Shown piece by piece: positions 4,666 to 50,521 of a stretch of DNA of 64,000 nt; within the stretch, counting starts at the first letter, position 1; each line of letters begins with the position of its first letter. The notes under the pieces are model-generated. The model ran no database searches. It was given only the letters and a program-made list of their open reading frames with translations, and was not told the DNA's origin. The DNA comes from an uncultured Bacilli bacterium. Lineage in GTDB: Bacteria; Bacillota_I; Bacilli_A; RF39; UBA660. The stretch lies in assembly GCA_947628535.1 (NCBI GenBank), contig CANRAF010000001.1, positions 268 to 64,267 on the forward strand, in the 5' to 3' direction. Made by a program: the position numbers and the translations under genes.

Positions 4666-4695
4666 ATTATACCCCCCCCCGTATCGTTTTGTCAA
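4666..4695 (-). promoter_or_regulatory. sigma-A promoter with G9 tract in the spacer
   Basis: TTGACA-aaacgatac-G9-TATAAT, 18 nt spacer. Confidence 0.85.
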
Positions 4696-4731
4696 TAAAA
4701 AAACACTTCTTTTATTTTGAAGTGCTTTCCT

Positions 4732-6126
4732 TTATTTTATTATTATTGTTACAGTTGTTGTTTTTGGTGTATATGTTAATTTTAAATCTTCTCCTGTAAC
4801 TTGAACTTTTACTTTATGCGTTCCTTTATCTAATCCTTGTAAATCTACAAATGCTTGAATATTTTCTGAAGAAGCATCTTTAATATTAGTAGCTGATCCT
4901 TTTACTATTACTGTTGCTACTGAATCAGAACGCGATGCAGCTTGAGCTGTTAAGCCATCTTTTAAGTTTTTAGTTGCTATATTTATATTTTTAACTGTTT
5001 TTTCTTTAACATCTGCTAAAGTAACTTCTGCAACTACAGATTTAGTAGATATTTCTCTTACTCCACTTGGAAGTGATAAGTTAACTGTATATTCTGTTTT
5101 CTTATCAAGACCATCTACATTTATATTTACTGGTATATATGAAATCTTTTCTAAGGCACTTTCATTACCATAAATAGTAGCATTTGTCTTACTTAATTTT
5201 ATTTCATCTATAGCTTTTCCAAAGGCAACTTCACCTTCTGGAACAACTCTAAGTGGTACTTCTTTACTTGGGGATGCTATTTCTATTGAAGCATCAACTG
5301 TTCCAGGAACTATTTCTATGTCCAGTTTATTACCTTTTGAATCATAAGCCACAAGAGGTATTTCTTTAAGTGTTGTTGTTCCAACTGTAGGTTTAGTTAT
5401 TTTTCTAATATCAACTAAAGCCTTAACTGTTGCTATTTGTTCTAGTTTGTATTCTGCACCTTTTACATATACTTCATCCCTACTGAAACTTATATCAGAA
5501 ATAGTATATTTAGAATCTAAACTATCTTCATATAGAATTTCTTTAGTTATTTTCTTAGATTCAGACATTTTTTCATAAACAACAACTGTTGCTACTGATG
5601 GATCTAGTTTATAATCTATTGATGAAACTGATCCACTATATTTTAAATCTACTTTATGGGTTCCAGGTTTTAAATCACGAAGATCAATAACTACTTCGTC
5701 ATTTTGAAATTGTTTAGCTAGATATAAATCCGCTCTTCTACCAATCAAAGTAATATCAACTGTTTCTGGAAGTCCTTCAATAACATATGCTTCTTCATTA
5801 TAAAGAGCTGTTACTTGTTTATTATAAATAATATCTGCAGAATTATTTGTTAATACTTCTGTTATTTTATCAACTCCAAAGAAAGCTATAAGAGCTATTA
5901 ATAGTGATAGACTTATTAATACTAATTTGTTATTTAAAAGTCTATCAAGGGGTTTACTAGTACCTTTAAATGGTTTCATTGCTAGTAACATAAGTTTAGC
6001 AAGTGGAGTTATAATAATTTTATCTATAACTATATATATTTGACTAATTAAATAATAGATGCCACGAGCTAGTTTTTTTAATAATTTAAATTTTTTCTTT
6101 TTCTTTGAGGATTTTTTCTTTGCCAT
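4732..6126 (-). CDS. cdaR: CdaR/YbbR diadenylate cyclase regulator
   Basis: Repeated YbbR-like domains, directly downstream of cdaA. Confidence 0.85.
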   Translation of the reverse strand: MAKKKSSKKKKKFKLLKKLARGIYYLISQIYIVIDKIIITPLAKLMLLAMKPFKGTSKPLDRLLNNKLVLISLSLLIALIAFFGVDKITEVLTNNSADIIYNKQVTALYNEEAYVIEGLPETVDITLIGRRADLYLAKQFQNDEVVIDLRDLKPGTHKVDLKYSGSVSSIDYKLDPSVATVVVYEKMSESKKITKEILYEDSLDSKYTISDISFSRDEVYVKGAEYKLEQIATVKALVDIRKITKPTVGTTTLKEIPLVAYDSKGNKLDIEIVPGTVDASIEIASPSKEVPLRVVPEGEVAFGKAIDEIKLSKTNATIYGNESALEKISYIPVNINVDGLDKKTEYTVNLSLPSGVREISTKSVVAEVTLADVKEKTVKNINIATKNLKDGLTAQAASRSDSVATVIVKGSATNIKDASSENIQAFVDLQGLDKGTHKVKVQVTGEDLKLTYTPKTTTVTIIIK

Positions 6127-6935
6127 TATACATCTTCCTCCTCTTCAAATTCATCTTCGAATTCATCTTGTTTTGGTTTTAATTCATCAATTAGTAAAAT
6201 TCTAGCATCATCTATTGTTAGATTATAGAAAAGTTCTCCTTTAATTGCAATTGATACTCTTCCTGTTTCTTCGGAAACTACTATTGCTAGAGCATCTGTC
6301 TCTTCGGTTATCCCAAGAGCTGCACGATGTCTAGTACCTAACCTTTTATTTATTTTTAAACTGTTGCTTGTAGGAAATACTGCTCCCGCACAACTTATTT
6401 TGTCTCCTTGTATTATTACTCCTCCATCATGTAGTGGATTATTTGGGAAGAATATTGAAACTAGAAGTTCACTTGACATTTCAGCATATAAATTTGTTGC
6501 TTTATTAATATAATCAATTAAACTTACATCTCTTTCAATAACAATTAAAGCTCCTATTTTGGCCTTTCTCATATTATCAACTGCAGTTATAATTTCATAT
6601 ACTAACCTTTCTCTTTCATCAACTGTTAAAATTTTATGCCTTCCTAAAAGTTGTGTTTTTCCTATTTGCTCTAAAATACTTCTTATTTCCGGTTGGAATA
6701 TAATAATCAAAGCAAGTGGTCCCCATTGAATTACATATTCAAGTATAAGTCCAACTGTAACTAATCCTATTGCATCTGCAATTATTTTTATTATCCAAAT
6801 AATTAATATTCCTTTGAATAATAAGGAAAGTTTAACATTACTTTTAACATTCTTTAAAATTTGATAAACTATTACCCATACGATTGTTACATCTATGATT
6901 TTTCTAATTATATCTATAATTAAGTCCCAATTCAT
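6126..6935 (-). CDS. cdaA: diadenylate cyclase CdaA
   Basis: Three TMs, PLHDGGVII and LGTRHRAALG motifs; GGAGG RBS before MNWDL. Confidence 0.95.
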   Translation of the reverse strand: MNWDLIIDIIRKIIDVTIVWVIVYQILKNVKSNVKLSLLFKGILIIWIIKIIADAIGLVTVGLILEYVIQWGPLALIIIFQPEIRSILEQIGKTQLLGRHKILTVDERERLVYEIITAVDNMRKAKIGALIVIERDVSLIDYINKATNLYAEMSSELLVSIFFPNNPLHDGGVIIQGDKISCAGAVFPTSNSLKINKRLGTRHRAALGITEETDALAIVVSEETGRVSIAIKGELFYNLTIDDARILLIDELKPKQDEFEDEFEEEEDV

Positions 6936-7081
6936 AATTACCTCCAAACGCTTTTTAATTATAACATCTATTTTTATAGAAGTAAAATTTTCTTTTTAAT
7001 GTGTACGCTTCTACTTTTACAAGTATACTATAAAAGTAAAAAAATTGTAAGATGTATTCTACAATTTTTTATTTATTTTCG

Positions 7082-8305
7082 TTATTTATAAATTGGAAAT
7101 TTTTTTGTTAATTTTAAAACTTCTTTTTTATTTTTTTCTAATATTTCTTTATTATCAACATTTTTAAGAGTTTCAGTTATAATATCTGCAATTAACTTAA
7201 ATTCTTTTTCTTTTAAACCTCTTGTAGTCATTGCAGGTGTACCTATTCTAATGCCACTTGTAGTAAACATAGATTCTTGTTCGTTTGGAACCGAGTTTTT
7301 ATTACATGTTATATGGATTTGATCAAGAATTTTCTCTGCATCTTTTCCTGTTATTCCAAATGAATTTTTAACATCTATTAACATAAGGTGGTTTTCTGTT
7401 GTTCCTGAAACTACTTTGACACCATTTTCTTTAAAGCGTTCAGCCATTGCTTTAGCATTTTTTATAACTTGTTTTTGATATTCTTTAAATTCTGGCTTTA
7501 ACGCTTCATAAAAGCATTGTGCCTTGGCTGCTATTACATGCATTAAAGGGCCTCCTTGAATTCCAGGGAAAATTGTTTTATCTATTTTTTTGGCAATGTC
7601 TTCATTGTTGGTCAAAATTATTCCTCCACGTGGGCCTCTTAATGTTTTATGAGTAGTTGAAGTTACTACATCGGCATAAGGACATGGGTTTTGATGAAGA
7701 CCTGCTACTACTAAACCTGCAATATGAGCCATATCTACCATTAAATATGCTCCAACTTTGTCGGCTATTTCTTTAAAACGTTTAAAATCTATTTCTAAAG
7801 CATAAGCAGATGCTCCAGCAATTATCATTTTAGGTTTTTCTTTTAAAGCTAATCTTTCAATTTCATCATAATCTAGCCTTTCTGTTCCTTTATCTAAATC
7901 ATATGATATTATTTCATAATCGCGACCACTAAAGTTTATTGGATGTCCATGGGTTAAATGGCCTCCATTTGTCAAAGCAAGTCCCATAACTTTGTCTCCA
8001 TGATTTAAAAGTGCACGATAAACTGCTAAATTAGCACTACTACCTGAATGAGGTTGGACATTTGCATATTTTACTCCAAACAACTGCTTTAAATATTTAA
8101 TAGCCTGATTTTCAAATATATCAATATATTCACAACCACCATAATATCTCTTTTCAGGATAACCTTCAGCGTATTTGTTAGTAAGTATACTTCCTTGAAG
8201 TTTTAGTATATCTTTTGATACATAGTTTTCTGATGCAATTAATTCAATATTATCCTCTTGTCTTCTTGTTTCTTTTTCTAAAGCATCTTCTAAAATCTTA
8301 TCCAT
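7082..8305 (-). CDS. glyA: serine hydroxymethyltransferase
   Basis: [27 protein letters not shown] motifs. Confidence 0.97.
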
Positions 8306-8467
8306 ATTATCACCTATAAACATTATACTCCTTTTAGATAAAGTTAGTAAATAAAAAACTTTGAAATAAAACTTTTTAGTTAATGTTTTAGATAATTAAC
8401 TTATATTAATGATTATTAATATGATGTTTTACCTTTTTTATTTTAGTAAGACTAAAAAAAGAATAAA

Positions 8468-8731
8468 CTATTCATTTATTCTTAATAACATTACATCTAA
8501 TTCTTCATATAAGTTTTCTTTTTTCTTTTTAGTTACTTTATCTTTTTTTATTAATTCATTTTTTAGAAGATATTTATATAATTTTCTATTTAATTCATCA
8601 ATGTTATCAAATATGCTTAAAATATTATCATGTATTATTTCATTTGATGCTTCGAGTAATTTATTAGTACAACTTTTTAACAAATTTTGTTCATAAAGGT
8701 AAAGAGTAGATATTATTTCTTTTTCTTCCAT
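8468..8731 (-). CDS. Coat F-like small spore protein
   Basis: MEEKEII...EASN...LYKYLLKN helical pattern resembles clostridial Coat F-domain proteins; coupled to the upstream gene. Confidence 0.5.
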   Translation of the reverse strand: MEEKEIISTLYLYEQNLLKSCTNKLLEASNEIIHDNILSIFDNIDELNRKLYKYLLKNELIKKDKVTKKKKENLYEELDVMLLRINE

Positions 8732-8937: not shown

Positions 8938-8956
8938 CATATTTTGCCTCCATTTA

Positions 8957-8986
8957 TATAATGAAACTATTTTTATTTTTTTATAC
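8957..8986 (-). promoter_or_regulatory. sigma-G-type (forespore) promoter
   Basis: GTATA-N18-CATTATA matches the B. subtilis sigma-G consensus GHATA-N18-CATnnTA. Confidence 0.55.
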
Positions 8987-8995
8987 AAAACTTAC

Positions 8996-9664: not shown

Positions 9665-9723
9665 AATAACCCTCCTCATATTTATTTTATCATAATATTA
9701 TAAAAAGAAAAACCCTTAATGGG

Positions 9724-20051: not shown

Positions 20052-21071
20052 TTATTTTAATGCTGCTACTAGGTCAGCTTTTTTCATTGTACTATAACCT
20101 TTTAATCCTTTTTCTTTAGCTATAGCTTTTAATTCAGTTAAAGTCTTTGATTCTAAATCAACTTCTTTTTTTACTGCTTTTGCTTTCTTTGGTTTTTCTT
20201 CTTTTGTTTCATCATCTTTTGCTTTAACAGTCTTTTCTTTCTTTTCTTCTTTTTTAGGTGCTTCTTTTGCTACTTTTTCTTCTTTTATTTCTTTTTTATC
20301 TGATTTACTTTCTTCTTTATCTTCTTGTTTAGCACTTTCTCCTTTAGAAGATTTTTTCATATCTTCTTGTGAAACACAATCTATTAATTCGTTACCATTT
20401 ACTTCTGCTATCGCATTTGTTAATGCTCCAATTACTAATTTTACAGCTCTAACAGCATCATCGTTAGCAGGAATTACATAATCTACCATATCTGGATCAC
20501 AATTAGTATCCACTATACCAAATACTGGTATTTTTAATTTTCTTGCTTCTTTTATTGCTGTTTCTTCTGCTCTTGGATCAACAATTATTAAAGCATTTGG
20601 AACTTTTTTCATTTCTCTTATACCACGTAAGTTTCTATTTAATTTTTCGTATTCTTTTTTAATTTGAATTACTTCTTTTTTTGGTAAAGCTTCAAAAATC
20701 CCGTCTTCTTCCATTTTTTCAATTTCATCTAATCTTTTTATTCTATTTCTAATTGTTCTAAAGTTTGTAAGTGTTCCACCAAGCCATCTTTCATTAACAA
20801 AGTACATATTAGTACGTTTTGCATTTTCTTCCATTGCTTCACTAGCTTGTTTTTTAGTACCTACATATAAGAAAGTTCCTCCATTTTGAGCAATTTTCTT
20901 AATTTCAGCATATGCTTCTTCTATTTGTTTAACTGTTTTTTGTAAATCAATAATATAAATATCATCTCTTGATGTATAAATATATTCTTTCATTTTAGGA
21001 TTCCATCTTCTTTTTTGATGTCCGAAGTGAACTCCTGCTTCTAATAAATAACTCATTGACACTACTGTCAT
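20052..21071 (-). CDS. rpsB: 30S ribosomal protein S2 with Lys/Glu linker and C-terminal Rho-N-like domain
   Basis: [25 protein letters not shown]; extra tail of about 100 aa ending [35 protein letters not shown]. Confidence 0.97.
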
Positions 21072-21157: not shown

Positions 21158-21703
21158 TTATTTTAAAGCAGCAATTAATTCTGCTTTTTTCATTGAAGTA
21201 TAACCTTCAACTTTTTTATCTTTGGCTATTTTTTTAAGTTCTGCTACAGTAAGTTTAGATAAATCTTCACTTGCTTTAGTATCTTTTTTTGCTTCGCTTT
21301 TTGCAGGTTTTTCTTTAGTTTCTTCTTGAACTTTTACAGTAGGTGCTTTTACTTTTTCTCCTTTAGCAATTTTTACTAAATCTTTAAATGCTTCTTTATC
21401 ATGAATTGCAAGTTCTGATAACATTTTTCTGTTAACTTCTACACCTGCTTTATTAAGGCCATCTATAAATCTAGAATAACTAATATCATTTACTCTACAT
21501 TCAGCATTAATTCTTGTTATCCATAACTTTCTAAAGTTTCTTTTTGTTTGTTTTCTATCACGATAAGCATATCTTTCAGAATGCATTACTTGTTCGTGAG
21601 CTGTTTTATAAAGTCTATGTTTACTACCAAAATAACCTTCTGCCTTTTTTAGTACTTTTTTACGTCTTGCACGTGTTGCAACACTATTTTTTACTCTTAC
21701 CAT
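21158..21703 (-). CDS. rplT: 50S ribosomal protein L20 with C-terminal Rho-N-like domain
   Basis: [24 protein letters not shown]; tail [35 protein letters not shown]. Confidence 0.97.
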
Positions 21704-22716: not shown

Positions 22717-24012
22717 TTATCTTAAATAATTCATAAAACTTAATGCTGAATAAATATTTCCTGTTTTTGGTACATCATCAAGTTTTGTTTTATCTACAAC
22801 TTTGTTAACGACAATATTTGTATTATCTTCAAAATTTTCTAGTTTAGTAAATTTAGCATATACTGTAACATTTCCATCAATTACATCGTCAGTATTAAAC
22901 CATGTATCAGTTCCTTCATAGTACCATCCAACAAAATCATATCCATTTTTTTCAGTATTTGGAATATCTTTAGGATTTATTTTGCCATCTTTGTCTACTA
23001 AAACAATATTACTCTTTCCATCTACAACAAAGTCAACATAATATGCATCAATACCAGCTATCAAATTTCCAGCAATTTGTGTATTGGTTGCCTTAAATGT
23101 GATATTTTCAGCTTCATTATTATTAAATATAGCACCTAAATCATTTGTACTAGCATTATTTATAAGAGTTGAATTAGAAACATTTATATCTACACCTTTT
23201 GTTTCCTTATTACTATATTTAGCCATTAAAATGACATCAAATGAATCATATGTTGAATGTCCAGTAAAAGCGTTTTGAATTACTGAATTATTTTTAATAT
23301 CAAGACTTACATTTTGTTGATTACCTACAACGATAGTTCCATAAGAATTACTACCATTCTTTGCGGCTGCATAACCTGTTAATTTACTATTATCTATAGT
23401 AACTTTATTACCTGTTACTGCACCGCTGTCTGCATCATAACTAGTTAAATCCAAAGCTGCATAACCCGCTAAATCACTATTTTTAATATTTACTGTATTA
23501 GAACCACCTTCAATCCATACTGCATATTTCGCATGAATAGTTGAATTAGAAATAGTTATAGTTGAACCATTACCACTAGTATTATAAACAACTACTCCAG
23601 AACCAGCACTAGTAAATTTTGATGAGTCATTTTCATCCGAATAATACATTTGAACTCCTGAAATATTAACTGTTGCTTTTGTTTTAACTTTAATAAATTC
23701 AGGTTGGCTTCCATTTGCACCATTATTTTTAGTAATTGTTAAATTATTAAAATTAACTTTTGTTGCACCGTTTGTTATTGAAAATGTGCCTTTAACAGTA
23801 GCACCATTTCCATTAATTACAACATTATTTGAAATAGTGTAATCTTTTTCATTATATGCTTTATCTTTTTGTAAATTAATAACAGAACAACTGCTAAGAG
23901 CGGTGTCCAATTCTGTTTCACTAGTTGGATTACAATTAGCTTCAGCAAAAACATTTGGAACAATAAACATACTTACTGCGAATGCAAATACCATAAATAA
24001 TACTTTCTTCAT
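22717..24012 (-). CDS. secreted/surface protein: beta-helix-like repeats, InlB B-repeat, VPKTG motif without anchor helix
   Basis: Signal peptide ending VFA, Asn/Ile-rich solenoid pattern, KNGYDFVGWY...VTVYAKF repeat, LDDVPKTG near the end. Confidence 0.7.
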   Translation of the reverse strand: MKKVLFMVFAFAVSMFIVPNVFAEANCNPTSETELDTALSSCSVINLQKDKAYNEKDYTISNNVVINGNGATVKGTFSITNGATKVNFNNLTITKNNGANGSQPEFIKVKTKATVNISGVQMYYSDENDSSKFTSAGSGVVVYNTSGNGSTITISNSTIHAKYAVWIEGGSNTVNIKNSDLAGYAALDLTSYDADSGAVTGNKVTIDNSKLTGYAAAKNGSNSYGTIVVGNQQNVSLDIKNNSVIQNAFTGHSTYDSFDVILMAKYSNKETKGVDINVSNSTLINNASTNDLGAIFNNNEAENITFKATNTQIAGNLIAGIDAYYVDFVVDGKSNIVLVDKDGKINPKDIPNTEKNGYDFVGWYYEGTDTWFNTDDVIDGNVTVYAKFTKLENFEDNTNIVVNKVVDKTKLDDVPKTGNIYSALSFMNYLR

Positions 24013-24035: not shown

Positions 24036-24067
24036 ATATTATCACCCCCCCCCCCACGTATTGTCAA
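24036..24067 (-). promoter_or_regulatory. sigma-A promoter with G11 tract in the spacer
   Basis: TTGACA-atacgt-G11-TGATAATAT; spacer is 18 nt to GATAAT or 20 nt to TG-extended TAATAT. Confidence 0.75.
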
Positions 24068-28024: not shown

Positions 28025-31000
28025 TTATTTTTTTGTTTTATTTCTGTTATATACTTCATATGCTCCTACTGATACCAATGATAATCCTAATATTATTCCT
28101 ATAATTGATATAAAACTTCCTGTATCTGGTACCTCTATTACTGTTCCTTCTATTTCTTCTTTCTTTTTGTTTTGTTCTTCTATTACCTTATATTTTGCAT
28201 AGAATATTCTATCACTATCTAGTTTTATTTCTTCTCCAACTTTATATAATACTTCTCCATTTTCTATAATGCTATATCCTAATAGTATTCCATTTTTTAT
28301 ACTTCTTTGTGGTGCTATTACACTACAACTATTATATGTTGTCTTACAACTTATTTCTTCTTTTCCATTTTTATATATGAATGTTGCTGTTAATATTTTT
28401 ACTGTTTCATCTATTCTCAATTTATATATTTCATCTTTTGTTATTGATATTTTACTTCCTGGTTTTATTCCCTCATCTTCACTTGATATACTAAATCCTA
28501 TTATTTCATAGTTTGTTTCTTCTACTTCTGGTAAAGTTATATCACATGCTAATTCTTTATTGTATATATAACAACTTTCTGATGCTTTTGATATTTTTAT
28601 CTTGTTATTTGGTGTTTCGAATTTTGCTGTTAGTTTCTTTTTTGTTATTGCATATAACGTCATGTTATCTGTTATTGTTATTCTATCTCCAACTGCATAT
28701 TCTTTTTCCTTTGCTGTATTACTACTTGCGTATCCTATTATTTCATAGCCTTCTCTTGTTATATCTGGTAATACTATTTCACAATTACCCTCTCCTGTAC
28801 AGCTTAATGTTTTATTTTCTATACTTGCTCCATTTTCTTCTAATGTTAATGTATAAGTACTTGTTTCAGGTGGTTTTATTTCTTCCTTTTTATATACTCC
28901 ATATAATGTTATATCTTTTGTTAAAGTAATCTCAATTCCTACATTATAATCTACACTACCTCCATTTGTTAGACTCCACCCTAAAAATTCACCATCTGTT
29001 ACTGTTTTTTGAGGCGTTACTATTTTGCAGCTATCACCTGTTGTTCTACAACTTAATCTTTCTTCATTTCCGTTAAATATGAATACTGCTGTAAACTCTT
29101 TTATCTTTTTTGCTCTTGCATAGTATGTTGTATCCTGAGTTAATGTTACTATATTTCCTTCTAATATACCCATATCTTCATCTGTTGTACTGAATCCTAA
29201 TATTTCATAACCTGTTGCTGTTATATTTGGAAGTGTTATATTACATCCTGTTTCTTCATTATATATATAACAACTTTCTGATGCTTTTGTTATTGTTAAA
29301 TCACTATTTGTTGTTTTAAATGTTGCTGTTAGTTTCTTTTTTGTTATTGCATATAGTGTCGTGTCGCTTGATAATATTATTCTATCTCCAACCTCATATT
29401 CTTTTTCCTTTGCTGTACTACTACTTGCATATCCTATTATTTCATAGCCTTCTCTTGTTATATCAGGTAATACTATTTCACAATTACTCTCTCCTGTACA
29501 GATTAATGCTTTATTTTCTATGCTTGCTCCATTTTCTTCTAATGTTAATGTATAGGTATTTGTTATTATATTTTTGCTACAAGTACCATACATTGTTGTT
29601 ATACTTTTTGTTGGTGTATACTCTCCTCCTGTTTCATAAGTTATTTCTTTCCCATTTTCTTTTTCTGTCCAACCACATGTATATCCTGCCTTTGTAATCG
29701 TTGGTAATGTTACACTTGGCATTGCACTCCACTTTGCATATAGTGTTGTTGTTCCAAATTTGCTCCAATTACCATTTTCATCTGTATATCCTGTTATATT
29801 ATTTTGTAATACTGGACTTGTTGCATTGCTTAACACTAAACTTCCTGAACTTGCTTCTGTATACCATCCTTCAAATGTTGCTGTTGATGTTAATTCATTT
29901 GTTGATGATACTGTAGCATTATCTGAATCATTTCCTTCTGATGTTGTAAATCCTCTTATTTTATATTCTTTCTTTGGTAATGTTATACTCGATGGATTTA
30001 ATGTTTTTGTGTTATATGTTATTTGTAAACTTCCTGGTTGTACATCTGTTGTTGCTCCGTTACTATTTAAATTTATTTTTACTTCATTTAATTTTGTCTC
30101 GCACACTCCATATAATGTTACATTTTCTGTTGGTGTATATTGTGATCCTGATGCATAAGTTATTTCTTTCCCATTTTCTTTTTCTGTCCAACCACATATG
30201 TATCCTTCTTTTTCTATTGTTGGTAATGTTATCTTTTGTGCTTGCCATCTAGCATACAATGTAGTTGCTGCATTTCTTATCCAGTTCCCACTTGTATCCG
30301 TATATCCTGTTATATTATTTTGTAATACTGGACTTGTTGCATTGCTTAACACTAAACTTCCTGAACTTGCTTCTGTATACCATCCTTCAAATGTTGCTGT
30401 TGATGTTAGTTCATTTGTTGATGATACTGTAGCATTATCTGAATTACTTTCTTTTGATGTTTTAAATCCACTTACTGTGTGTTCTTTCTTTGGTATTGTT
30501 ATTGTACTTGGAGTTATTACCTTTGTGTTATATGTTATTTGTAAACTTCCTGGTTGTGCATCTGTTGTTGCTCCGTTACTATTTAATGTTATTGTATATG
30601 TATTTGGTATAAATGTTGAAGTTATTGTTCCTGCCGAACCTACTGTTACTATTGCTGGTGATTCTGAACTTGTTGATAATCCTGTAAATTTACTAAATGT
30701 ATATCCAGTATTTGCTGTTGCTGTTGATGTTATTGTTTCTCCACTTCTTGCTGTTAAACTCTTATTTCCTGAAGTTCCTGATGTTGTTGCTGTTACTCCT
30801 GTTTTATTACTTTGTGCTGTTACTTTATGACTTCCATTTCCATCTGTTGCTACTGTTATTTCATATTCTGTTCTATCAAACCACATTGAATATGTTGAAT
30901 CTGCTGTTAAACTTGGCACTGTTTGACTTACTGAAGCTGCTGTTTCACTTGCTGCCCCTGTGCTTATTCCTTTAAATGTTGATTCTGTTGCATGTGTTGG

Positions 31001-34000
31001 TACTTTATATATATTTGCCAATGTTAAACTTGTGCTGTTTGGTGCTATATACGTTTCTGTACTTTCTTGTTTATAGTTTGCTGTTGTATAAACTCCTTTT
31101 TCTCCACTTACTTTTAGTAACATATTATTTACTACATAACTTCTATATATTTGTGATACGCTTGTTGATGTATTTCCTGCTTCATCCTTACAGAATAAGT
31201 AATATTGACCAGCCTTATTTACTTCTGATGTTGTTGAGTAGTCTTTACTTGATGTTATTGAAGTATAATCACTATCTGTTGGTGCTGATTTTGTGCCAAA
31301 GTAGTATTTTGTTACTCCAGCTGTATCTGTACATGATAATGTTGCTGTTTGTTTTGCTGATTTTAATGTATTTGTTGTTGTTATTTTTCCTACCGGTTTT
31401 GTTGTATCATTACATTTTGCATATAGAGTTACTGATGCTGGACTTGTTGCCGTTGGTGTATAACTTGTTGTATAATCTGTACCATTTCCATCTGCTTGTG
31501 AATTCCATACACATGTATTTCCATCCTTACTTATTGTTTGAAGTGGAACTGCTACTGGTTTCCAGTTAGCTGTTAATGTTACTTCTCCATTTTTGTCTCT
31601 TAAGTTCTTAAAGTATGTATTTGTTGTTGTATCTCCTGTCCATATTCCATATGTTGGTAATGTTGATTCGCTTGGCCCTGCTCCTACTATCACTTCTCTT
31701 GATGATTCTCTTATTGTTCCTACTGCTGCTTTCTCATTGACTTTTTCTCCATCTAGATATATTTTCATTGTACTTCCATCATAGGTTGCTACTACCGTGT
31801 GCCATTCTTTAAATGGTATTGCTCCTGTACATACTGATGTCTGTGATGTATCTGTACTATTTAATGCAAATTGAAAACATGCTGCATTTGTATTTTGTTC
31901 CACATAAAATTCAAATCCATTTTTATTACTATAATTATCTATTAGTGCTCCCCCATTTTCTGTTCCTGCTTTTGTATAGAATTTTGCTACTACTGTTATT
32001 TTTTTTCCAAAATCTTTATTCCTTAATGATGTTGTAAAATAATCACTTGTTCCATTTAATTCTAATCCATTATAGAATATTCTATAAAATAATTGATTTG
32101 CATTTGTCGTATAGTTAAATGAATTAGTAAAGTTTTCTTTAATTTCAGCGTCTGTTAATACATCATTTATTATTAATGCTCTTGATATTAATCCATTATA
32201 ATAATTTCTTGTTCCTCCAGTTGTTTTACTTGCTGATGATGTTAGGCCTGCTGAGGCGTTACTTGTCCAGCCAGCAAATACTTGAGATTTACTATAATAT
32301 GGTCCTATTGTTGCTCCAGTGCCATTTTCTTCTCCTTTTACTGTTACTGTCTTTATTGGTGTTGAACAATATATTTCTTCGTCATATGTTCCGCTTGTTG
32401 GGCAATTACCATTATAATTTATTCCTCCATTCATTTCATATTTTATTGTGTATGTATTTGCATCAAACTTACCATATAAAGTTGCATTTGATGTCGGTGT
32501 ATATGATGCTCCTCCATTTTTAACTTTTGTTGTATATGTTCCTTCTTTATACCAACCATTAAATGTATATCCTGTTAATGTTGCATTTGGTAATGTTACT
32601 GCACTTGTTGTATATTTTGCGTACAATGTATGATTGCTTTCACTTATTAGGTTACTAGAATTGGATACTTTATTTACTAAGTTTTTATCGCTATACCATC
32701 CTTCAAATGTATTTGTACTTTTTTCACTTTTTGGATATGTACTACTTACTGTTTTTCCATAACTATATGTTGTTGTATAAGCATCTTTTGTAGTATTTGG
32801 TAAGTTTTTATATGTTTTATAGGCTACTAAATGATTACCTACTACATTTCCTCCATTATATTCTAAATTTACTGTTGTCCCATACACTCTTGTGGGCCTT
32901 AATACCCAAAATAAATCTTTGGCATATATCTCATATAATCTTGTAAATCCTGTTTTAGTACTGTTTTTATCATAATGTTTTACCCCTGCACTTGTAAAAT
33001 CTATAAACTTTGGATATCCATCACTATCTTGCCCTACATACATAAATGATTCTATTTTGCTCGTATTATTTGTTAAGTCAAATATTATATCTCCATATTC
33101 TAAATCATTTACACCTATTCCTATACTAAATCCATTATTTCTTGCTCTTATTAGCTTTTCTCTATCTCCATTATCATTACCTCTTAAATATCTTCCTCCA
33201 TATAATCCTGGCACCAACATCTCTCTTATGTTTTTTTGATTTCCTGTTAAATTTGCTGCCTTTGTATCTGTTTTCATATAGTATATTTTTTTCTTTTCTG
33301 TTCCTACTGTTACATCCTTAGTATTAAATAGTGCTGTAAGCATATCATTTTCGTTATTACTTTTAGCTCTTATATATCCTATATCTATTCCTAGACTATT
33401 ATAATAAATCATTTTAGCAAATTCTCCATCTGATAAAGTTATTGTACTTGTTATATTATCTAAATCTTTTTTGTAGTTATTTGTTATTGCACTTCCATTA
33501 TTTGTTATTTTTCCATTTTTCACTAAATTTTCAAATTTTGTTATTTCTTCTTCCATTTTTGTTATATTTATTCCGTTTATTGTTGGATTTACTTTTGTTT
33601 TTAACTCTCCTAATTGTAATGTTTCTCCTTCGTTTGTTGTTATTTTCATTCCTTTATTTGTTATATCTTTATCTGTTGTTACTTTTACTTTGTATTTATA
33701 TGTGTATGTTGGATTGTCATTACTGTAAACATTATCTACCATTCCACTATTTGGGATTATTTCATCTACTTTCCAAGTAATAGTTTTACTATTTTTATCA
33801 TAACTACAATTATTGCAACTATTTTCAACATATTCTGTACCATCTGGTATTTTATTTGTTATAGATAGATTTTTATATTGATAACTAGCACTATTTGTTG
33901 CATATTTCCATGTATATTTATTTGCTTCACAAGCACTCTTAGTGTAATACGCACCTCTTGAACAATAACTATAATTTGCTTTATTTTGTATTGTTAAATT

Positions 34001-35305
34001 ATAAGTTATTTCATCGCCCTCATTTACAGAATTTTTATCACTAATTGTATTATATGTTCTTCCATTTGTTCCATATTTTACATCTTCATATGCATATTGT
34101 CTTATTTTTAATCTTGATAGCTTTTCTCTTGCTACTGAATTATCTATTACATTTTGATCTACTGCTTTAGAAAAATCATCTGATTCTGTTGGTATAGTAC
34201 AAACATTAGTCCCGTTACAAAATTGATTTATAGGTCTTTCAACTGATATTCTATAACCTATTTGAGTACTAGTCTCAGTTAATATTTTTGTTGGGAACCA
34301 TTCTTCTACTGTATCATATCTGATTCCATATGTATCATCACCAGTGCTTTTCATTGATCCGTCTGAATTATAAGTATAATCAGCCCCATATGAATGAATA
34401 AGACCCTGTTCATTTTTATTTATAGCTCCTCCTACATATATCATTACATGACCAGGACTTCCTGATACACTCCCATCTGCATTTTTATTTCTAAATGCAT
34501 AATTAATAATATCTCCTGGTTGTAAAATACTTTTTAGTTCTGCTATAACCTTTGTACTTTTGCCTGCAATCTCTTTTTGAACTGCACTCACAGTTGTACC
34601 TTCTGCTTCAAAGTAATATACTGCTTGAGTTTTATTATTTTTATTATTATTTAAATAAGAGCCTGTTGTACTACTTACGTTGGTTTTATTATTGCTTGCC
34701 GTTTGTTTAGATATTGCAGCAAAATAACGTGTATCTACCCCTAAACCAACATTATTTACTTCTTTTTGGAACCATCCTTGATTTTGTTTAGTAGTATAAA
34801 AAATATCTGGATAATTTTTTATATTGCTGTCTGACATATTATAATATGGATATTTTTTACCATCATAAAAATATGAATAAGTCCCATTTTTATAATAATT
34901 AGAAAAATCATAACCTAAAGCATTTTTATAAACAATATACACAAATCCTGAACAATCGATGAAAAAATCATTAGTCATAGTTGTTTGTTCTGGAGTAACA
35001 TTTAAATTTCTCCAGGCCATTGTTCCGCTTACTGTAGCCTTTGTGAATCCATAATTTGTATCCTTTAAATTTTGTCCATAATCAGTATATAAATTATTAT
35101 AGTAATAACTTAATGCAGTTGCAACTACCATATCCTGCATTTTTTGTCTAGTAAATGTTTTATTTGTTATTGCATATGAATTTGATACTTTATATAATAT
35201 AAATACTCCTGCCATTAAGATTATTAAACATATTAAGCCCAAAAATACTTTTTTATATTCTTTTACTTTATTTAATACCCCCCCCCCAAGCATAATTTTC
35301 TTCAT
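28025..35305 (-). CDS. 2426-aa cell-surface protein: NlpC/P60-like domain, DUF11-like domain, InlB B-repeats, LamG-like domain, tandem repeats, VPDTG sorting signal
   Basis: AAGGAG RBS, signal peptide, DCSGFV and GHVMIYVG, WHTVVATYDG, TF/EGWY repeats, VPDTG plus TM plus basic tail. Confidence 0.85.
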   Translation of the reverse strand: MKKIMLGGGVLNKVKEYKKVFLGLICLIILMAGVFILYKVSNSYAITNKTFTRQKMQDMVVATALSYYYNNLYTDYGQNLKDTNYGFTKATVSGTMAWRNLNVTPEQTTMTNDFFIDCSGFVYIVYKNALGYDFSNYYKNGTYSYFYDGKKYPYYNMSDSNIKNYPDIFYTTKQNQGWFQKEVNNVGLGVDTRYFAAISKQTASNNKTNVSSTTGSYLNNNKNNKTQAVYYFEAEGTTVSAVQKEIAGKSTKVIAELKSILQPGDIINYAFRNKNADGSVSGSPGHVMIYVGGAINKNEQGLIHSYGADYTYNSDGSMKSTGDDTYGIRYDTVEEWFPTKILTETSTQIGYRISVERPINQFCNGTNVCTIPTESDDFSKAVDQNVIDNSVAREKLSRLKIRQYAYEDVKYGTNGRTYNTISDKNSVNEGDEITYNLTIQNKANYSYCSRGAYYTKSACEANKYTWKYATNSASYQYKNLSITNKIPDGTEYVENSCNNCSYDKNSKTITWKVDEIIPNSGMVDNVYSNDNPTYTYKYKVKVTTDKDITNKGMKITTNEGETLQLGELKTKVNPTINGINITKMEEEITKFENLVKNGKITNNGSAITNNYKKDLDNITSTITLSDGEFAKMIYYNSLGIDIGYIRAKSNNENDMLTALFNTKDVTVGTEKKKIYYMKTDTKAANLTGNQKNIREMLVPGLYGGRYLRGNDNGDREKLIRARNNGFSIGIGVNDLEYGDIIFDLTNNTSKIESFMYVGQDSDGYPKFIDFTSAGVKHYDKNSTKTGFTRLYEIYAKDLFWVLRPTRVYGTTVNLEYNGGNVVGNHLVAYKTYKNLPNTTKDAYTTTYSYGKTVSSTYPKSEKSTNTFEGWYSDKNLVNKVSNSSNLISESNHTLYAKYTTSAVTLPNATLTGYTFNGWYKEGTYTTKVKNGGASYTPTSNATLYGKFDANTYTIKYEMNGGINYNGNCPTSGTYDEEIYCSTPIKTVTVKGEENGTGATIGPYYSKSQVFAGWTSNASAGLTSSASKTTGGTRNYYNGLISRALIINDVLTDAEIKENFTNSFNYTTNANQLFYRIFYNGLELNGTSDYFTTSLRNKDFGKKITVVAKFYTKAGTENGGALIDNYSNKNGFEFYVEQNTNAACFQFALNSTDTSQTSVCTGAIPFKEWHTVVATYDGSTMKIYLDGEKVNEKAAVGTIRESSREVIVGAGPSESTLPTYGIWTGDTTTNTYFKNLRDKNGEVTLTANWKPVAVPLQTISKDGNTCVWNSQADGNGTDYTTSYTPTATSPASVTLYAKCNDTTKPVGKITTTNTLKSAKQTATLSCTDTAGVTKYYFGTKSAPTDSDYTSITSSKDYSTTSEVNKAGQYYLFCKDEAGNTSTSVSQIYRSYVVNNMLLKVSGEKGVYTTANYKQESTETYIAPNSTSLTLANIYKVPTHATESTFKGISTGAASETAASVSQTVPSLTADSTYSMWFDRTEYEITVATDGNGSHKVTAQSNKTGVTATTSGTSGNKSLTARSGETITSTATANTGYTFSKFTGLSTSSESPAIVTVGSAGTITSTFIPNTYTITLNSNGATTDAQPGSLQITYNTKVITPSTITIPKKEHTVSGFKTSKESNSDNATVSSTNELTSTATFEGWYTEASSGSLVLSNATSPVLQNNITGYTDTSGNWIRNAATTLYARWQAQKITLPTIEKEGYICGWTEKENGKEITYASGSQYTPTENVTLYGVCETKLNEVKINLNSNGATTDVQPGSLQITYNTKTLNPSSITLPKKEYKIRGFTTSEGNDSDNATVSSTNELTSTATFEGWYTEASSGSLVLSNATSPVLQNNITGYTDENGNWSKFGTTTLYAKWSAMPSVTLPTITKAGYTCGWTEKENGKEITYETGGEYTPTKSITTMYGTCSKNIITNTYTLTLEENGASIENKALICTGESNCEIVLPDITREGYEIIGYASSSTAKEKEYEVGDRIILSSDTTLYAITKKKLTATFKTTNSDLTITKASESCYIYNEETGCNITLPNITATGYEILGFSTTDEDMGILEGNIVTLTQDTTYYARAKKIKEFTAVFIFNGNEERLSCRTTGDSCKIVTPQKTVTDGEFLGWSLTNGGSVDYNVGIEITLTKDITLYGVYKKEEIKPPETSTYTLTLEENGASIENKTLSCTGEGNCEIVLPDITREGYEIIGYASSNTAKEKEYAVGDRITITDNMTLYAITKKKLTAKFETPNNKIKISKASESCYIYNKELACDITLPEVEETNYEIIGFSISSEDEGIKPGSKISITKDEIYKLRIDETVKILTATFIYKNGKEEISCKTTYNSCSVIAPQRSIKNGILLGYSIIENGEVLYKVGEEIKLDSDRIFYAKYKVIEEQNKKKEEIEGTVIEVPDTGSFISIIGIILGLSLVSVGAYEVYNRNKTKK
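28160..29557 (-). repeat. two intragenic repeats, period 699 bp (233 aa)
   Basis: TYTLTLEENGASIENK...CEIVLPDITREGYEIIGYASS occurs twice; cttgctcc anchor at 28824 and 29523. Outer limits approximate. Confidence 0.85.
29580..30586 (-). repeat. two intragenic repeats, period 516 bp (172 aa), with near-identical core
   Basis: gttgctccgttact anchor at 30051 and 30567; DNATVSSTNELTSTATFEGWYTEASSGSLVLSNATSPVLQNNITGYTD identical in both copies. Confidence 0.9.
35278..35287 (-). repeat. G10 homopolymer within codons 7-10 of the giant surface protein
   Basis: ctt-ggg-ggg-ggg-gta (L-G-G-G-V). Confidence 0.9.
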
Positions 35306-35400
35306 TTGGACTCACTCCTTTAGTTTCTTATAGTTTTATTATAACATAAGGTACAAAAAAAAGAAACCAATTAATTGGTTTCTTATTATTTTGTTACTTA

Positions 35401-43089: not shown

Positions 43090-43300
43090 AAAAAATTACA
43101 TCACCCAAGGACGATGTAATCGTGGTACCACCTTAATTTGTAATAGTTTATTACCTTATTTGTATATAACACATACCTGTGAATTGTTTTACTAAAGTTC
43201 AAACAATTAACTCCAAAGCTACCTTCAACTATATCTAATATCTATTTACACCAAACATAGACTCTCTTTAATTAAATGATAGTTTACTCCTCTTTTTCTT
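43090..43300 (-). promoter_or_regulatory. T-box riboswitch, Val specifier
   Basis: AGAGAG box, GGTGTAA, GAAG-GTA specifier (43222-43220), T-box AAGGTGGTACCACG (43134-43121), terminator TTACATC...GATGTAA plus U-run. Confidence 0.9.
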
Positions 43301-43306
43301 TGTTTT

Positions 43307-43423
43307 TTAATATAAATCCCTAATGGTTACTATTTCTCCTGCTACTAGGAAAATTACCATTAAGATTACAAATGCTAATATTAGAAAGGCCATAAGTCCC
43401 CAACCATGATTGTTTAGTTTCAT
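43307..43423 (-). CDS. 38-aa prepilin-leader-like micro-protein (absent from the ORF track)
   Basis: AGAGGTG RBS overlapping the trxB end; MKLNNHG-WGLMAFLILAFVILMVIFLVAGEIVTIRDLY. Confidence 0.6.
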   Translation of the reverse strand: MKLNNHGWGLMAFLILAFVILMVIFLVAGEIVTIRDLY

Positions 43424-45138: not shown

Positions 45139-45153
45139 GTACTCCCTCCTTTA

Positions 45154-47970: not shown

Positions 47971-48129
47971 ATAAAACACTTCCCTTTTTTATTTTGCTCC
48001 CTTTTCTAAGTTTGTATTATAACATATTTTTAGTCTTTTTTAAATAGATAAGAATTTTTGATTATGGATTTTATAAAATAGAAAAAGATCACTTTTTTGT
48101 GATCTTTTATAATATTTATTATCAGTTTT

Positions 48130-50451
48130 TTAATAGTGATAACAAGATTTGTAACTTTCTACTCCACATGTTTTTGCTCTACATGAATAATGTGTTTGAC
48201 ATCCACATGTCTTTGCCCTACATGACTCTCTGGTTTCACATCCTGCTTTTGAACATCTATTGTATTTAGTACATGTATATGCAGTACATGGACAATTTGA
48301 TCCAGTAGTATAATTATACGCTGAACAAGTTTTAGTGGTAGTACATTTTTGGCAATTACTAAATGCCTTTACTGTAGTAATTCCAGAACCTGCTGTACCA
48401 GCATTACAAACTTTATACCCTGTGCTTTTTCTTGTATAGCCGGATGGACAAGAAGGATAACTTAAGTTCCATGTTACTGTACAAGATTTAGCAGTAACTT
48501 TTTTTGTTGTACAATTTTTATTAGTTTTATATGTTTTGCAGCTACCTTTATTACAAGCAGATCTTTTAGAGCAAGAAGAAGTTGCACAAGTACAACTTGA
48601 ACCTCTTTTATATAATGCGCAATCACATGATGAATTTCTACATGATTTATATGTTTTACAATCACATGATGAATTTACACATGATTTATATTGTTTTACA
48701 CCGCAATCTTTATGTGCTGAGTATGTTGCTACATTATATGTTGCACTATTCGATGTTACATTTCCTGCATTATCTTCACATGTTCCTGATACTTTAAATC
48801 CTTTCATTGGGGATTTTATTGTATATGTATATGGGTTAGTTGTATGTTTCGTACTATTTACATTTGAATTACTTGATAATGTTTTTACTCCACTTCCTGT
48901 ATCACTACAACTTACTGTTACACTAAATGGTGATGAGCTTGATACTGCATAATAACTTTTTTCACTTACTTTATTTTTATTTGCTTTATATGTTATTACT
49001 GGTGCTTTTGTATCTACATTTATTTCTCCTGATGTTATCTTCTTATTCTTTTGTCCTCCTGCTGTTACAAATCCTTCATTTATTATTATGTTGTCACTTC
49101 CTAATTGATTTGTTTTACTTGCTGTATATGTTAGTTTATATTCTACTACTTTATTTTCATTTGTATTATATACTCCTGTTGATGCTTTCGATAATGTTCC
49201 TAAATTGTTTTTTAATACCATCTTACTTACATCTATTGTTGCTGTTTTATCTGTCGGTACATAACATGTTACTGTCATGCTTGTTGTTTTATTTAATCCT
49301 AACCAACTACTTGATGGTGTTGTATTCTTACAATATATTGGGTCCCCAGTTGTATATGAATCACTTCTTACATAATAATTTTTGTCTTTTGTTGTTTTAT
49401 TTCCTGCTTTATCTTCACATGTTGTTGTATATTTCTTTGGCATTGTTGATATTGATGCTGTTTTTATTGTATCTTTATGTGTTGTTTCCCCTGTATATGT
49501 TTTCCCATTTTGTATTATTTGATTCTTTAATGTATTTATTACTCCTTCATCTGTACATTTCGCAGTTACATTTAACTCTGGTATATACCATCCATCTGTT
49601 TGTGGTTTCTTATCTTCTGTATAACTTACTTTTGGTGCTGTATTATCTATTATAAATTTTGCACAAGCATTTCCTGTACTATTTCCTCCTGCATCTACTA
49701 CATGTATTTCATATTCTCCTTCTATTCCTTCTTTCATATGTTTATTTATGTAACTAATTATTTCTTTTTGGGTTACTTCGCTATTATCATTTAACTCTAT
49801 TCCTACTATCTCTTCTGTTGTCATATTTATTATCTCTATATATGCTATCTGTCTATCTTCTTTTACTTCTTTTAGTTTTACTGCTTTTGGATTATATACT
49901 TTACCTTCTGTTATTGCCGTCGGATCTGTATATTCTGCAGCTTCTACATTACAGCTTGGATTTTCTTTATCACCCCAATCTGTTATATTACATGCTATCT
50001 GTTCTTCTTCACTACTTGTATCTTTAGTAGGATCATATACATTACCATTTTTATCTGTACATCTTAAACATGCATACCATTTATATTCACTACTATTTAT
50101 TTTTTGTTTTACGTATACATAACTTTCTGTACATTCATTACCTTCTGAATCTACAAATTCTTTGCTTATATAGTTATTACTTTGCATCTCTGGCAAACTT
50201 ACATAACTAAAGTCTTGCCCGTTTCTATATACTCCTGTATAACTTTTTACTGGCAATTTTTGTCTATTATCTGTAAAGTATTCTTTACCTGATATTAATA
50301 ATTGATCTTTTAATTTCTCATTATACTCATTTCTTCCTTCATTCATATAATGTGTTACTACTGGTATTGCTATACCTGCGAGTACCGCTATTATGGCTAC
50401 TGTTATCAGTATTTCTACCATTGTAAATCCTTTTTTATTAACTTTTTTCAT
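48130..50451 (-). CDS. large type IV pilin-like protein with Ig-like repeats and 30-Cys C-terminal region
   Basis: KKG-FTMVEILITVAIIAVLAGIAIP prepilin motif; DNTAP/DTKAP Ig-like segments; Cys-rich 13-aa repeats. Confidence 0.8.
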   Translation of the reverse strand: MKKVNKKGFTMVEILITVAIIAVLAGIAIPVVTHYMNEGRNEYNEKLKDQLLISGKEYFTDNRQKLPVKSYTGVYRNGQDFSYVSLPEMQSNNYISKEFVDSEGNECTESYVYVKQKINSSEYKWYACLRCTDKNGNVYDPTKDTSSEEEQIACNITDWGDKENPSCNVEAAEYTDPTAITEGKVYNPKAVKLKEVKEDRQIAYIEIINMTTEEIVGIELNDNSEVTQKEIISYINKHMKEGIEGEYEIHVVDAGGNSTGNACAKFIIDNTAPKVSYTEDKKPQTDGWYIPELNVTAKCTDEGVINTLKNQIIQNGKTYTGETTHKDTIKTASISTMPKKYTTTCEDKAGNKTTKDKNYYVRSDSYTTGDPIYCKNTTPSSSWLGLNKTTSMTVTCYVPTDKTATIDVSKMVLKNNLGTLSKASTGVYNTNENKVVEYKLTYTASKTNQLGSDNIIINEGFVTAGGQKNKKITSGEINVDTKAPVITYKANKNKVSEKSYYAVSSSSPFSVTVSCSDTGSGVKTLSSNSNVNSTKHTTNPYTYTIKSPMKGFKVSGTCEDNAGNVTSNSATYNVATYSAHKDCGVKQYKSCVNSSCDCKTYKSCRNSSCDCALYKRGSSCTCATSSCSKRSACNKGSCKTYKTNKNCTTKKVTAKSCTVTWNLSYPSCPSGYTRKSTGYKVCNAGTAGSGITTVKAFSNCQKCTTTKTCSAYNYTTGSNCPCTAYTCTKYNRCSKAGCETRESCRAKTCGCQTHYSCRAKTCGVESYKSCYHY

Positions 50452-50486
50452 ATGCTTTCATATGCTCCTTCATATTTTATTTTCCT

Positions 50487-50521
50487 ATTATAAGGATACC
50501 CCCCCCCTATACTTTTGTCAA
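50487..50521 (-). promoter_or_regulatory. promoter with G9 tract in the spacer
   Basis: TTGACA-aaagtata-G9-TATCCT-TATAAT; 17 nt to TATCCT, 23 nt to TATAAT. Confidence 0.7.

Follow-up and report, generated by a model that had tools for sequence, protein, structure and literature searches.

The window analysed here, a 64-kb stretch of DNA from a rabbit-gut bacterium, is AT-rich (28% G+C) and contains exactly four runs of G or C longer than 5 nt, which in plus-strand coordinates are C9 (4672-4680), C11 (24045-24055), C10 (35278-35287), and C9 (50499-50507). All four are read as G on the minus strand, where nearly all genes of the window lie. The run lengths show a gap: C runs extend up to 5 nt (n=8) and G runs up to 4 nt, no run of 6-8 nt is present, and then come the four runs of 9-11 nt. 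Under a first-order Markov model of the window, approximately 0.01 runs of 9 nt or more were expected, versus the four observed. Repeats of G or C slip frequently from 7-8 units upward, and the four tracts exceed this length as well as the frequency expected by chance. The run count agrees with the initial annotation, which had listed G9, G11, G10, and G9 as the sole long G/C runs in the 64 kb. No Rfam family was found to overlap any of the tract loci. A reading of the runs as G-quadruplexes or regulator sites was dropped, with a single run per site and flanks that share nothing conserved among the four sites. The tracts, numbered 1 to 4 by position, are associated with the following features.

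4666-4695, minus strand: promoter 1, with TTGACA (4695-4690), an 18-nt spacer, and TATAAT (4671-4666); 12/12 consensus
4174-4644, minus strand: gene 1, a membrane protein of 156 aa whose single TM helix is accompanied by an N-terminal zinc ribbon and by an FxLYD domain on the extracellular side
24038-24067, minus strand: promoter 2, with TTGACA (24067-24062), an 18-nt spacer, and GATAAT (24043-24038); 11/12 consensus
22717-24012, minus strand: gene 2, a secreted protein of 431 aa that carries a signal peptide and a Listeria-Bacteroides repeat as well as a sorting signal of the VPKTG type at its C-terminus
35278-35287, minus strand: tract 3, G10 in codons 7-10 (Gly-Gly-Gly-Val) of gene 3
28025-35305, minus strand: gene 3, a 2426-aa surface/wall protein
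50487-50521, minus strand: promoter 4, with TTGACA (50521-50516), a 17-nt spacer, TATCCT (50498-50493), and TATAAT (50492-50487)
48130-50451, minus strand: gene 4, a 773-aa pilin-like protein whose N-terminus carries a prepilin-type cleavage/methylation signal (KKGFTMVEIL) and whose C-terminus is Cys-rich

Tracts in promoter spacers

The spacer of promoter 1 consists of aaacgatac followed by G9 (4672-4680), and that of promoter 2 of atacgt, G11 (24045-24055), and a single t. Since the non-G parts offset the tract lengths (9 + G9 versus 7 + G11), both spacers measure 18 nt, at least half of which is occupied by the tract. Promoter 1 stands 22 nt upstream of the start of gene 1 (4174-4644), which is monocistronic, is followed by a terminator (4141-4170), and matches NF038353 FxLYD_dom with 80.9 bits (cut-off 23).

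In promoter 4, aaagtata and G9 (50499-50507) form a spacer of 17 nt, which together with TATCCT gives 10/12 consensus. A perfect TATAAT directly follows TATCCT at 23 nt from the -35. The -10 assignment appears ambiguous, as the 17-nt spacer would fit only the weak TATCCT. The -35 of this promoter overlaps that of a divergent promoter on the plus strand (50515-50544). Gene 4 is monocistronic, with a terminator at 48083-48108, and matches TIGR02532 with 28.6 bits (cut-off 16.3); an 11-codon upstream ORF overlaps its start. Three tracts had been placed in the spacer that separates TTGACA from the -10; this holds exactly for tracts 1 and 2 and has to be qualified for tract 4 given the weak TATCCT. 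By its placement, a change of one unit would be expected to alter expression at tracts 1, 2, and 3, and at tract 4 only if TATCCT is the -10.

A tract in the first codons of gene 3

Tract 3 was correctly described as lying in the first codons: gene 3 begins ATG AAG AAA ATT ATG CTT, followed by G10 and TA. The frame is kept with G7, G10, and G13; with G8, G9, G11, or G12 a TAA is reached after 10-12 residues, the wrong frames closing 1-3 codons past the tract. As out-of-frame lengths in the coding sequence would truncate the product, tract 3 has the properties of a Campylobacter-type intragenic poly-G switch, and judged from its reading frame gene 3 is ON as assembled (G10). The encoded protein has a signal anchor at its N-terminus and a VPDTG sorting signal with a TM segment at its C-terminus; it also contains an NlpC/P60-like region, Flg_new repeats, and a LamG domain. 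The gene has its own extended -10 promoter downstream of the tuf terminator (35361-35384).

The homologs retrieved with the first 403 residues of gene 3 were all distant, at 57% identity or below. No poly-G tract is present in the closest of these (57% identity), so that conservation of the switches does not extend over larger distances. Exact look-ups toward tract 3 in other assemblies gave no record for EF-Tu and contigs that were too short for ribosomal protein S7.

Exported products of the tract genes

Exported or membrane proteins are encoded by 4/4 tract genes, compared with 15/52 ORFs of the window (p = 0.005), and each of the four tract genes is a separate transcription unit. The earlier statements that the tracts are G on the coding strand next to genes for exported or membrane proteins (4/4), and that housekeeping genes are spared (0/4), thus held. 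In the window as in the survey described below, the tracts are biased toward genes for surface structures and host interaction.

Tract lengths across assemblies

Tract lengths were compared for tracts 1, 2, and 4, using contig data of approximately 3x coverage. In three assemblies of the species (approximately 2-3x depth), tract 1 was G9 (window), G9 (L004), and G11 (L006), with identical flanks; a sequencing or assembly error is possible for the G11 variant, because the coverage of its contig was 1.5x. No length difference was seen at tract 2 (G11 in the window, L001, and L014; three assemblies) or at tract 4 (G9 in the window and L007; two assemblies). Contigs L002 and L003 start inside tract 2, and contigs of two assemblies as well as of Logan runs end exactly at tracts. 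The Logan contigs of rabbit-gut runs (approximately 3x depth) break at tracts 1-4 and so yield no lengths. The window proteins were singleton clusters at 90% identity in 10/10 cases tested; therefore, there appear to be no close sister strains outside one study.

Survey of the promoter design in other genomes

Species-representative genomes were surveyed for TTGACA, 5-10 nt, a run of G9 or more, and a -10. The design was present in at least 120 loci in these genomes, approximately 70% of them from Bacillota and mostly from gut MAGs. Treponema MAGs were among the matches, and the design also occurred in the cultured isolates Streptobacillus notomytis, Pumilibacter muris, and a Helicobacter sp. 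The fetched loci included zero pieces of the genome of the window and are therefore independent of it. On viral contigs, 6 G-type and 2 C-type promoters were counted, numbers too small to decide strand orientation.

Among the matches listed, an N-terminal hydrophobic segment was present in 74/103 (72%) of the downstream ORFs versus 134/445 (30%) of other ORFs (p = 1e-14). Behind ordinary consensus promoters of the same loci, such a segment was found in 4/27 ORFs (15%; p = 9e-8 versus 74/103). The families recurring downstream, in the matches listed, were BspA-type LRR, Flg_new, and prepilin N_methyl. Again among the matches listed, the tract adjoins the -10 in 93/122 cases, and the spacers peak at 18-19 nt with a second group at 15-16 nt, the canonical 17 nt being almost absent. 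The rarity of the 17-nt spacing is not predicted by a simple model in which 17 nt is ON. One rabbit MAG contains paralogous cassettes that are identical except for G9 versus G10, and three paralogous cassettes of one MAG share G10 and a spacer of 19 nt. The survey suggests that the use of poly-G in promoters is common across gut Bacillota.

Comparison with known systems

In Neisseria meningitidis porA, a poly-G tract in the promoter spacer sets the level of transcription. In opc of the same species, a poly-C tract lies between -35 and -10, and its length sets the spacing and hence transcription (PMC13742949). The layout of tracts 1 and 2, with a homopolymer separating the -35 from the -10 ahead of a gene for a surface protein, is the same, and on sequence grounds they would classify as promoter-spacer switches of the porA/opc type; tract 4 is ambiguous, and tract 3 does not belong to this type. 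Unlike porA and opc, the loci described here belong to a gut commensal of the low-GC Gram-positive type and combine perfect consensus boxes, a tract adjoining the -10, and an assembled spacing of 18 nt.

Campylobacter jejuni and Helicobacter possess poly-G contingency genes, collectively the phasome (PMC6321876, PMC2823697). Shared features are tracts of G9-G11 in an AT-rich genome, several independent loci, surface structures as targets and, for tract 3, a 5' in-frame tract with ON/OFF control by frameshift. Most of the tracts in Campylobacter lie within genes and act on enzymes that modify glycans, whereas here 3/4 lie in promoters and the targets are proteins (adhesin-like, pilin-like, and others). 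In Campylobacter, the high switching rates are explained by the absence of mismatch repair.

In Treponema pallidum, promoter poly-G tracts modulate transcription of tpr genes (PMC7864442 and references therein). These tracts likewise lie upstream of genes for surface or outer-membrane proteins, but differ in phylum and promoter context, and their position relative to -35 and -10 varies among tpr genes. In Bifidobacterium breve, slippage of a G tract toggles a sortase-dependent pilus ON and OFF, with selection in vivo, as shown by maximum-depth sequencing (PMC9187656). This organism resembles the present case as a gut commensal with a G tract controlling a surface structure. Its tract is intragenic, however, the host is a high-GC actinobacterium, and slippage has been demonstrated there while it is inferred here. 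Homopolymers in promoter spacers also generate combinatorial variation of surface-protein repertoires in Mycoplasma hyorhinis (vlp, poly-A) and Bordetella pertussis (fim, poly-C). In those systems the tracts are of A or C rather than G, and the four genes described here are unrelated and do not form one paralogous family.

Proposed mechanism and alternative explanations

The four tracts are probably contingency loci that would vary by strand slippage, of the kinds known from porA/opc and from Campylobacter: hypermutable simple-sequence repeats that would slip reversibly and affect expression. During replication, the polymerase would slip on the homopolymer and gain or lose a G far more often than a point mutation would arise. 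At tracts 1, 2, and probably 4, such a change would alter the distance between -35 and -10 of a sigma-A promoter and raise or lower the transcription of one monocistronic gene, so that the promoter tracts may act as dimmers or on/off switches, as in Neisseria porA and opc. At tract 3, slippage would shift the frame at codon 10 of the wall protein (2426 aa) and thereby turn it strictly on or off, as happens in the poly-G genes of Campylobacter. Each switch would act independently, so that a single clone would comprise as many as 16 different combinations of the four exported proteins. The products varied in this way would be the FxLYD membrane protein, the secreted repeat protein of the sortase type, the giant adhesin-like wall protein, and the large pilin-like protein.

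The initial annotation had proposed a stochastic surface-variation repertoire. The layout of the tracts, their excess over chance, their exported products, and their orientation support it, whereas length heterogeneity is weakly shown (G9/G9/G11 at tract 1, constant lengths at tracts 2 and 4). A slipped-strand repertoire is nonetheless the best reading, because in many other gut genomes, too, the design shows a strong association with genes for exported proteins.

More tentatively, the promoters of the window may be instances of a standardized cassette composed of a -35, 5-10 nt, and a poly-G tract adjoining the -10, either with a working spacing of 18-19 nt or default-off. Its users would be uncultured gut Bacillota widely, together with Saccharibacteria, Treponema, and Fusobacteriota, and its targets would be exported-protein genes. 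In one variant, the G run would alter the length or twist of the helix such that 18-19 nt, and not 17, is the working spacing; in the other, selection would hold the promoter 1-2 steps from ON, leaving it off by default with rare ON variants.

It is unlikely that the G runs are instead fixed functional elements, the 18-19-nt G-containing spacer being a constant working state. A G-rich spacer at the -10 would then provide the -14 G contact of an extended -10 or a particular helix geometry, and in gene 3 the run would merely code for Gly-Gly-Gly. Such an element would fit the adjoining of tract and -10 (93/122) and the spacers at 18-19 rather than 17 nt among the survey matches listed, the three G10 cassettes with 19-nt spacers in one MAG, and the constancy of tracts 2 and 4 between assemblies. 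No homopolymer is required for a fixed spacer, however, and to our knowledge G runs of 9 or more have been unstable in all organisms tested (Campylobacter, Neisseria, and Haemophilus), an instability generally regarded as intrinsic. The G9 and G11 forms of tract 1, the G9 and G10 forms of paralogs, and the second spacer group at 15-16 nt in the survey also argue against a constant state, and glycine codons that are all GGG are not expected at 28% G+C.

Less probable still is that the tracts arose as neutral mutational accidents or were left behind by a cassette that moved or was copied, selection for variable expression playing no part. The tract of gene 3 is missing from the nearest homolog, and paralogous promoter cassettes exist, so that some tracts have evidently spread by duplication. 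Neutral origin is nevertheless at odds with the confinement of the tracts to promoter spacers and first codons, with none elsewhere in the 64 kb and none in housekeeping genes, and with a strong bias toward exported proteins. Sequencing or assembly artefacts, such as the poly-G of two-colour Illumina chemistry, are very improbable: contigs frequently break at the tracts and coverage of the comparison assemblies is low, but the tracts occur at identical bases in four or five independent assemblies, the runs are only 9-11 nt long with unique matching flanks on both sides and fitting promoter or frame geometry, and the design recurs in cultured isolates and in MAGs that come from numerous studies and assemblers.

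Significance

Phase variation by homopolymer slippage is textbook knowledge for a few pathogens, and work on gut commensals has dealt mostly with invertible promoters. Full-text searching found no literature on poly-G promoter-spacer switches in uncultured gut Bacilli or Clostridia. The mechanism proposed for the tracts, slipped-strand contingency, is already known; what is new is its host, a little-studied gut lineage, and the avoidance of 17 nt is odd. The standardized cassette, if true, would amount to a general rule, as yet undescribed, for how stochastic surface variation is built in the gut microbiota. For the interpretation of MAGs, switch genes may be labelled as broken, or their expression presumed from promoter quality. 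If the tracts vary, a single clone of the bacterium may present its four surface proteins in as many as 16 combinations, and if such switches are common in gut Bacillota, they would be relevant to IgA escape, phage escape, and strain persistence.

Long G runs and adjoining genes

The window has a G+C content of 28%, and nearly all of its genes lie on the - strand. By run-length count over the 64 kb, exactly four long G/C runs were found; C runs on the + strand were otherwise no longer than 5 (8 cases at 5), G runs were no longer than 4, and no G/C runs of 6-8 were present. The number of runs of 9 or more expected under a first-order Markov model was ~0.01.

Long G runs (tracts #1-#4) by run-length count and the genes that they adjoin

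Tract #1: 4672-4680, C9 on the + strand, G9 on the - strand
Gene 1: 4174-4644, - strand, 156 aa; zinc ribbon, one TM helix, FxLYD domain (NF038353, 80.9 bits)
Tract #2: 24045-24055, C11 on the + strand, G11 on the - strand
Gene 2: 22717-24012, - strand, 431 aa; signal peptide, Listeria-Bacteroides repeat, C-terminal VPKTG motif with a hydrophobic tail after it
Tract #3: 35278-35287, C10 on the + strand, G10 on the - strand
Gene 3: 28025-35305, - strand, 2426 aa; signal anchor, Flg_new repeats, LamG domain, terminal VPDTG and TM helix
Tract #4: 50499-50507, C9 on the + strand, G9 on the - strand
Gene 4: 48130-50451, - strand, 773 aa; prepilin-type cleavage/methylation signal (TIGR02532), Cys-rich C-terminus

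The coordinates and lengths in the initial annotation were exact, and its statements that these are the only long G/C runs (nothing else exceeds 5) and that all are G on the strand that encodes the adjacent genes (4/4, - strand) were borne out. N-terminal hydrophobic segments, called by a simple hydropathy test, were present in all four tract genes vs 15 of 52 window ORFs (hypergeometric p = 0.005), which, together with the domains, confirmed the description of all four products as membrane, secreted or pilin-like; the N-terminal helix of gene 4 is like those of type IV pilins and geopilin. None of the four is a housekeeping gene, as had also been claimed, even though they are surrounded by ribosomal protein genes, tuf, fusA, valS, uvrA and uvrB.

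Anatomy of the tracts

Promoter 1 (4666-4695) reads TTGACA-aaacgatac-G9-TATAAT, matching the consensus at 12/12 positions with an 18-nt spacer; the start codon of gene 1 lies 22 nt downstream, a hairpin and T-run lie immediately upstream of the promoter, and a terminator (4141-4170) follows the gene. Promoter 2 (24038-24067), upstream of gene 2, reads TTGACA-atacgt-G11-t-GATAAT and also has an 18-nt spacer, tract lengths of 9 and 11 and non-G parts of 9 and 7 nt giving equal totals. Spacers of ordinary TTGACA promoters in the window are 17 nt (6/8) or 16 nt (2/8), so that the spacers of #1 and #2 exceed the local norm by one base. The placement of three tracts between TTGACA and the -10 was thus exact for #1 and #2, and less clear for promoter 4 (TTGACA-aaagtata-G9-TATCCT), where the weak TATCCT lies at 17 nt and is directly followed by a perfect TATAAT, whose distance to the -35 would be 23 nt.

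Tract #3 lies in the first codons, as proposed, occupying codons 7-10 of gene 3 (ATG AAG AAA ATT ATG CTT GGG GGG GGG GTA). The frame is kept by G7, G10 and G13, and all other lengths lead to TAA after 10-12 residues. Gene 3 has its own extended -10 promoter, located after the tuf terminator (35361-35384).

An 11-codon upstream ORF (MKEHMKAYEKS; 50440-50484, - strand), containing a Shine-Dalgarno-like AAGGAG, overlaps the start codon of gene 4 and may represent a leader peptide or translational coupling. On the opposite strand, the -35 of promoter 4 (50516-50521, - strand) overlaps TTGTCA, the -35 of a divergent promoter (50515-50544, + strand) serving an FAD-dependent oxidoreductase gene; tract #4 lies just upstream of the latter promoter and could also influence it.

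Variation in tract length

The sample originated from a rabbit gut metagenome. All 10 window proteins tested formed singleton clusters at 90% identity, indicating that close relatives are absent outside one study. Logan contigs end at or within all four tracts, at a depth (~3x) that says nothing on length. Tract lengths were compared with those in four further ENA assemblies of the species, all of low coverage. Tract #1 was G9 in the window and one contig (L004) and G11 in another with identical flanks (L006, coverage 1.5x). Tract #2 was G11 in L001 and L014 as well as in the window, and a nearby SNP shows that L014 is not the same clone; two more contigs start within this tract. Tract #4 was G9 in both the window and L007, and the nearest homologue of gene 3 (57% identity) carries no tract. 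Length polymorphism was thus weakly observed, once at #1, with none seen at #2 (three assemblies) or #4 (two).

In L005 (1-200; ENA assembly ERZ27249283), unrelated DNA lies upstream of gene 1 with the junction exactly at the tract position, 'GGTATAAT', only 'GG' remaining ahead of TATAAT; the contig is either chimeric or rearranged at tract #1.

Survey of other genomes

The pattern TTGACA N5-10 G9 N0-3 DATAAT was scanned over a species-representative genome collection and matched at least 120 loci (L018-L137); none of the matches listed came from the genome of the window. By record title, the matches listed comprised ~56 Clostridia-type, 18 Bacilli-, Acholeplasma- or Anaeroplasma-type, 4 unspecified Bacillota, 5 Negativicutes, 5 Saccharibacteria or CPR, 6 spirochaete, 3 Fusobacteriota, ~15 other and 8 unlabelled sources; gut MAGs formed the majority, and 12 were rabbit ('Lapin') MAGs.

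Among the matches listed, a hydrophobic or signal N-terminal segment was present in 74/103 (72%) first downstream ORFs, compared with 134/445 (30%) other ORFs of at least 150 aa (p = 1e-14) and 4/27 (15%) ORFs that follow ordinary TTGACA/DATAAT promoters lacking G/C runs (p = 9e-8) at the same loci. Recurring downstream families among these matches were BspA-type LRR (9 proteins), LRR_8 (6), Flg_new and Flg_new_2 (4), prepilin N_methyl (2), VWA and Big_2, the same kinds of protein as in the window.

Additional G tracts in the survey loci sat in promoters laid out in the same way, with boxes that were slightly imperfect. Paralogous poly-G cassettes with flanks ~80-95% identical occurred within single genomes: two cassettes in rabbit Bacilli MAG Lapin-033 bin54 (L056, L090) differed solely in G9 vs G10, and three in one Oscillospiraceae MAG (L026, L069, L130) all had G10 and 19-nt spacing. 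An uncultured Bacilli MAG from Hadza gut (L062) carries two paralogous genes with G10 (4834-4843) or G9 (6607-6615) in the first few codons; the G10 follows ATG and five codons, as in #3, and is out of frame (OFF), whereas the G9 copy is in frame.

Promoter spacing

Among the 122 matches listed, -35/-10 spacing was 19 nt in 35, 18 nt in 28, 20 nt in 18, 16 nt in 17, 15 nt in 11 and 17 nt in only 6, giving modes of 18-19 nt, to which #1 and #2 belong as the main mode, and 15-16 nt in consensus assemblies; G9 tracts adjoining the -10 had 17-nt spacing only once. Control promoters at the same loci peaked at 17 nt (12/27), with 0 at 19 nt. In vivo, most alleles may lie one or two steps from ON, a reading favoured by published porA data, in which the spacing optimum is 17 nt; alternatively, a G-run spacer may be optimal at 18-19 nt, as favoured by the three identical G10/19-nt paralogues.

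The tract adjoined the -10 in 93/122 of these matches, and the preceding base was C in 71/122. Orientation was G in 4/4 window tracts and ~7/7 extra tracts in survey loci; in viral contigs, G vs C (6 vs 2) was not significant. Both the orientation (G rather than C) and the adjoining of the -10 could plausibly be explained by the extended -10 'TG' motif: G at -14 makes up half of it, and a run fixed at the -10 would hold G there at any length.

Other features of the window

At 1-171 (- strand) the window begins within a 16S rRNA gene, in the 5' end. An L31 leader is located at 63254-63283, and a T-box leader (43104-43309, - strand) precedes an operon of an HD-domain protein and valS. In L20 and S2, both ribosomal proteins (21158-21703 and 20052-21071, - strand), C-terminal extensions end in a common Rho_N/SAP-like motif. 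A stretch of 1.56 kb is directly duplicated (55744-57301 and 57944-59501), with 3 mismatches between the copies, each of which contains the same pair of ORFs for membrane proteins (150 and 253 aa); between the copies, on the opposite strand, lie a tmRNA gene (57389-57733, +) and a tRNA (57758-57828, +). The duplication could be real, surrounding a hot spot for integration, or could have arisen in assembly.

Interpretation

The four tracts are probably classical slipped-strand mispairing contingency loci, three promoter-spacer switches and one intragenic switch, each on one monocistronic exported-protein gene. A fixed structural promoter element is unlikely, a neutral hot spot rather less likely still, and an artefact highly improbable. 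Tracts #1, #2 and #4 would vary the promoter spacer as in the porA/opc type, and #3 would be the single intragenic switch, of the Campylobacter type. The surface-variation reading of the initial annotation was supported in part: design and associations were strong, whereas variability was barely shown (G9/G11 once). The slipped-strand mechanism is documented in Neisseria, Campylobacter, Helicobacter and Treponema tpr genes in the literature searched and in Bifidobacterium breve pili (PMC9187656), and a 2026 review gives invertible promoters as a gut-commensal example (PMC13742949); no description of such switches in uncultured gut Bacilli or Clostridia was found in the literature searched. The significance of the phenomenon is raised by its breadth across gut MAGs and by the unexplained scarcity of 17-nt spacing.
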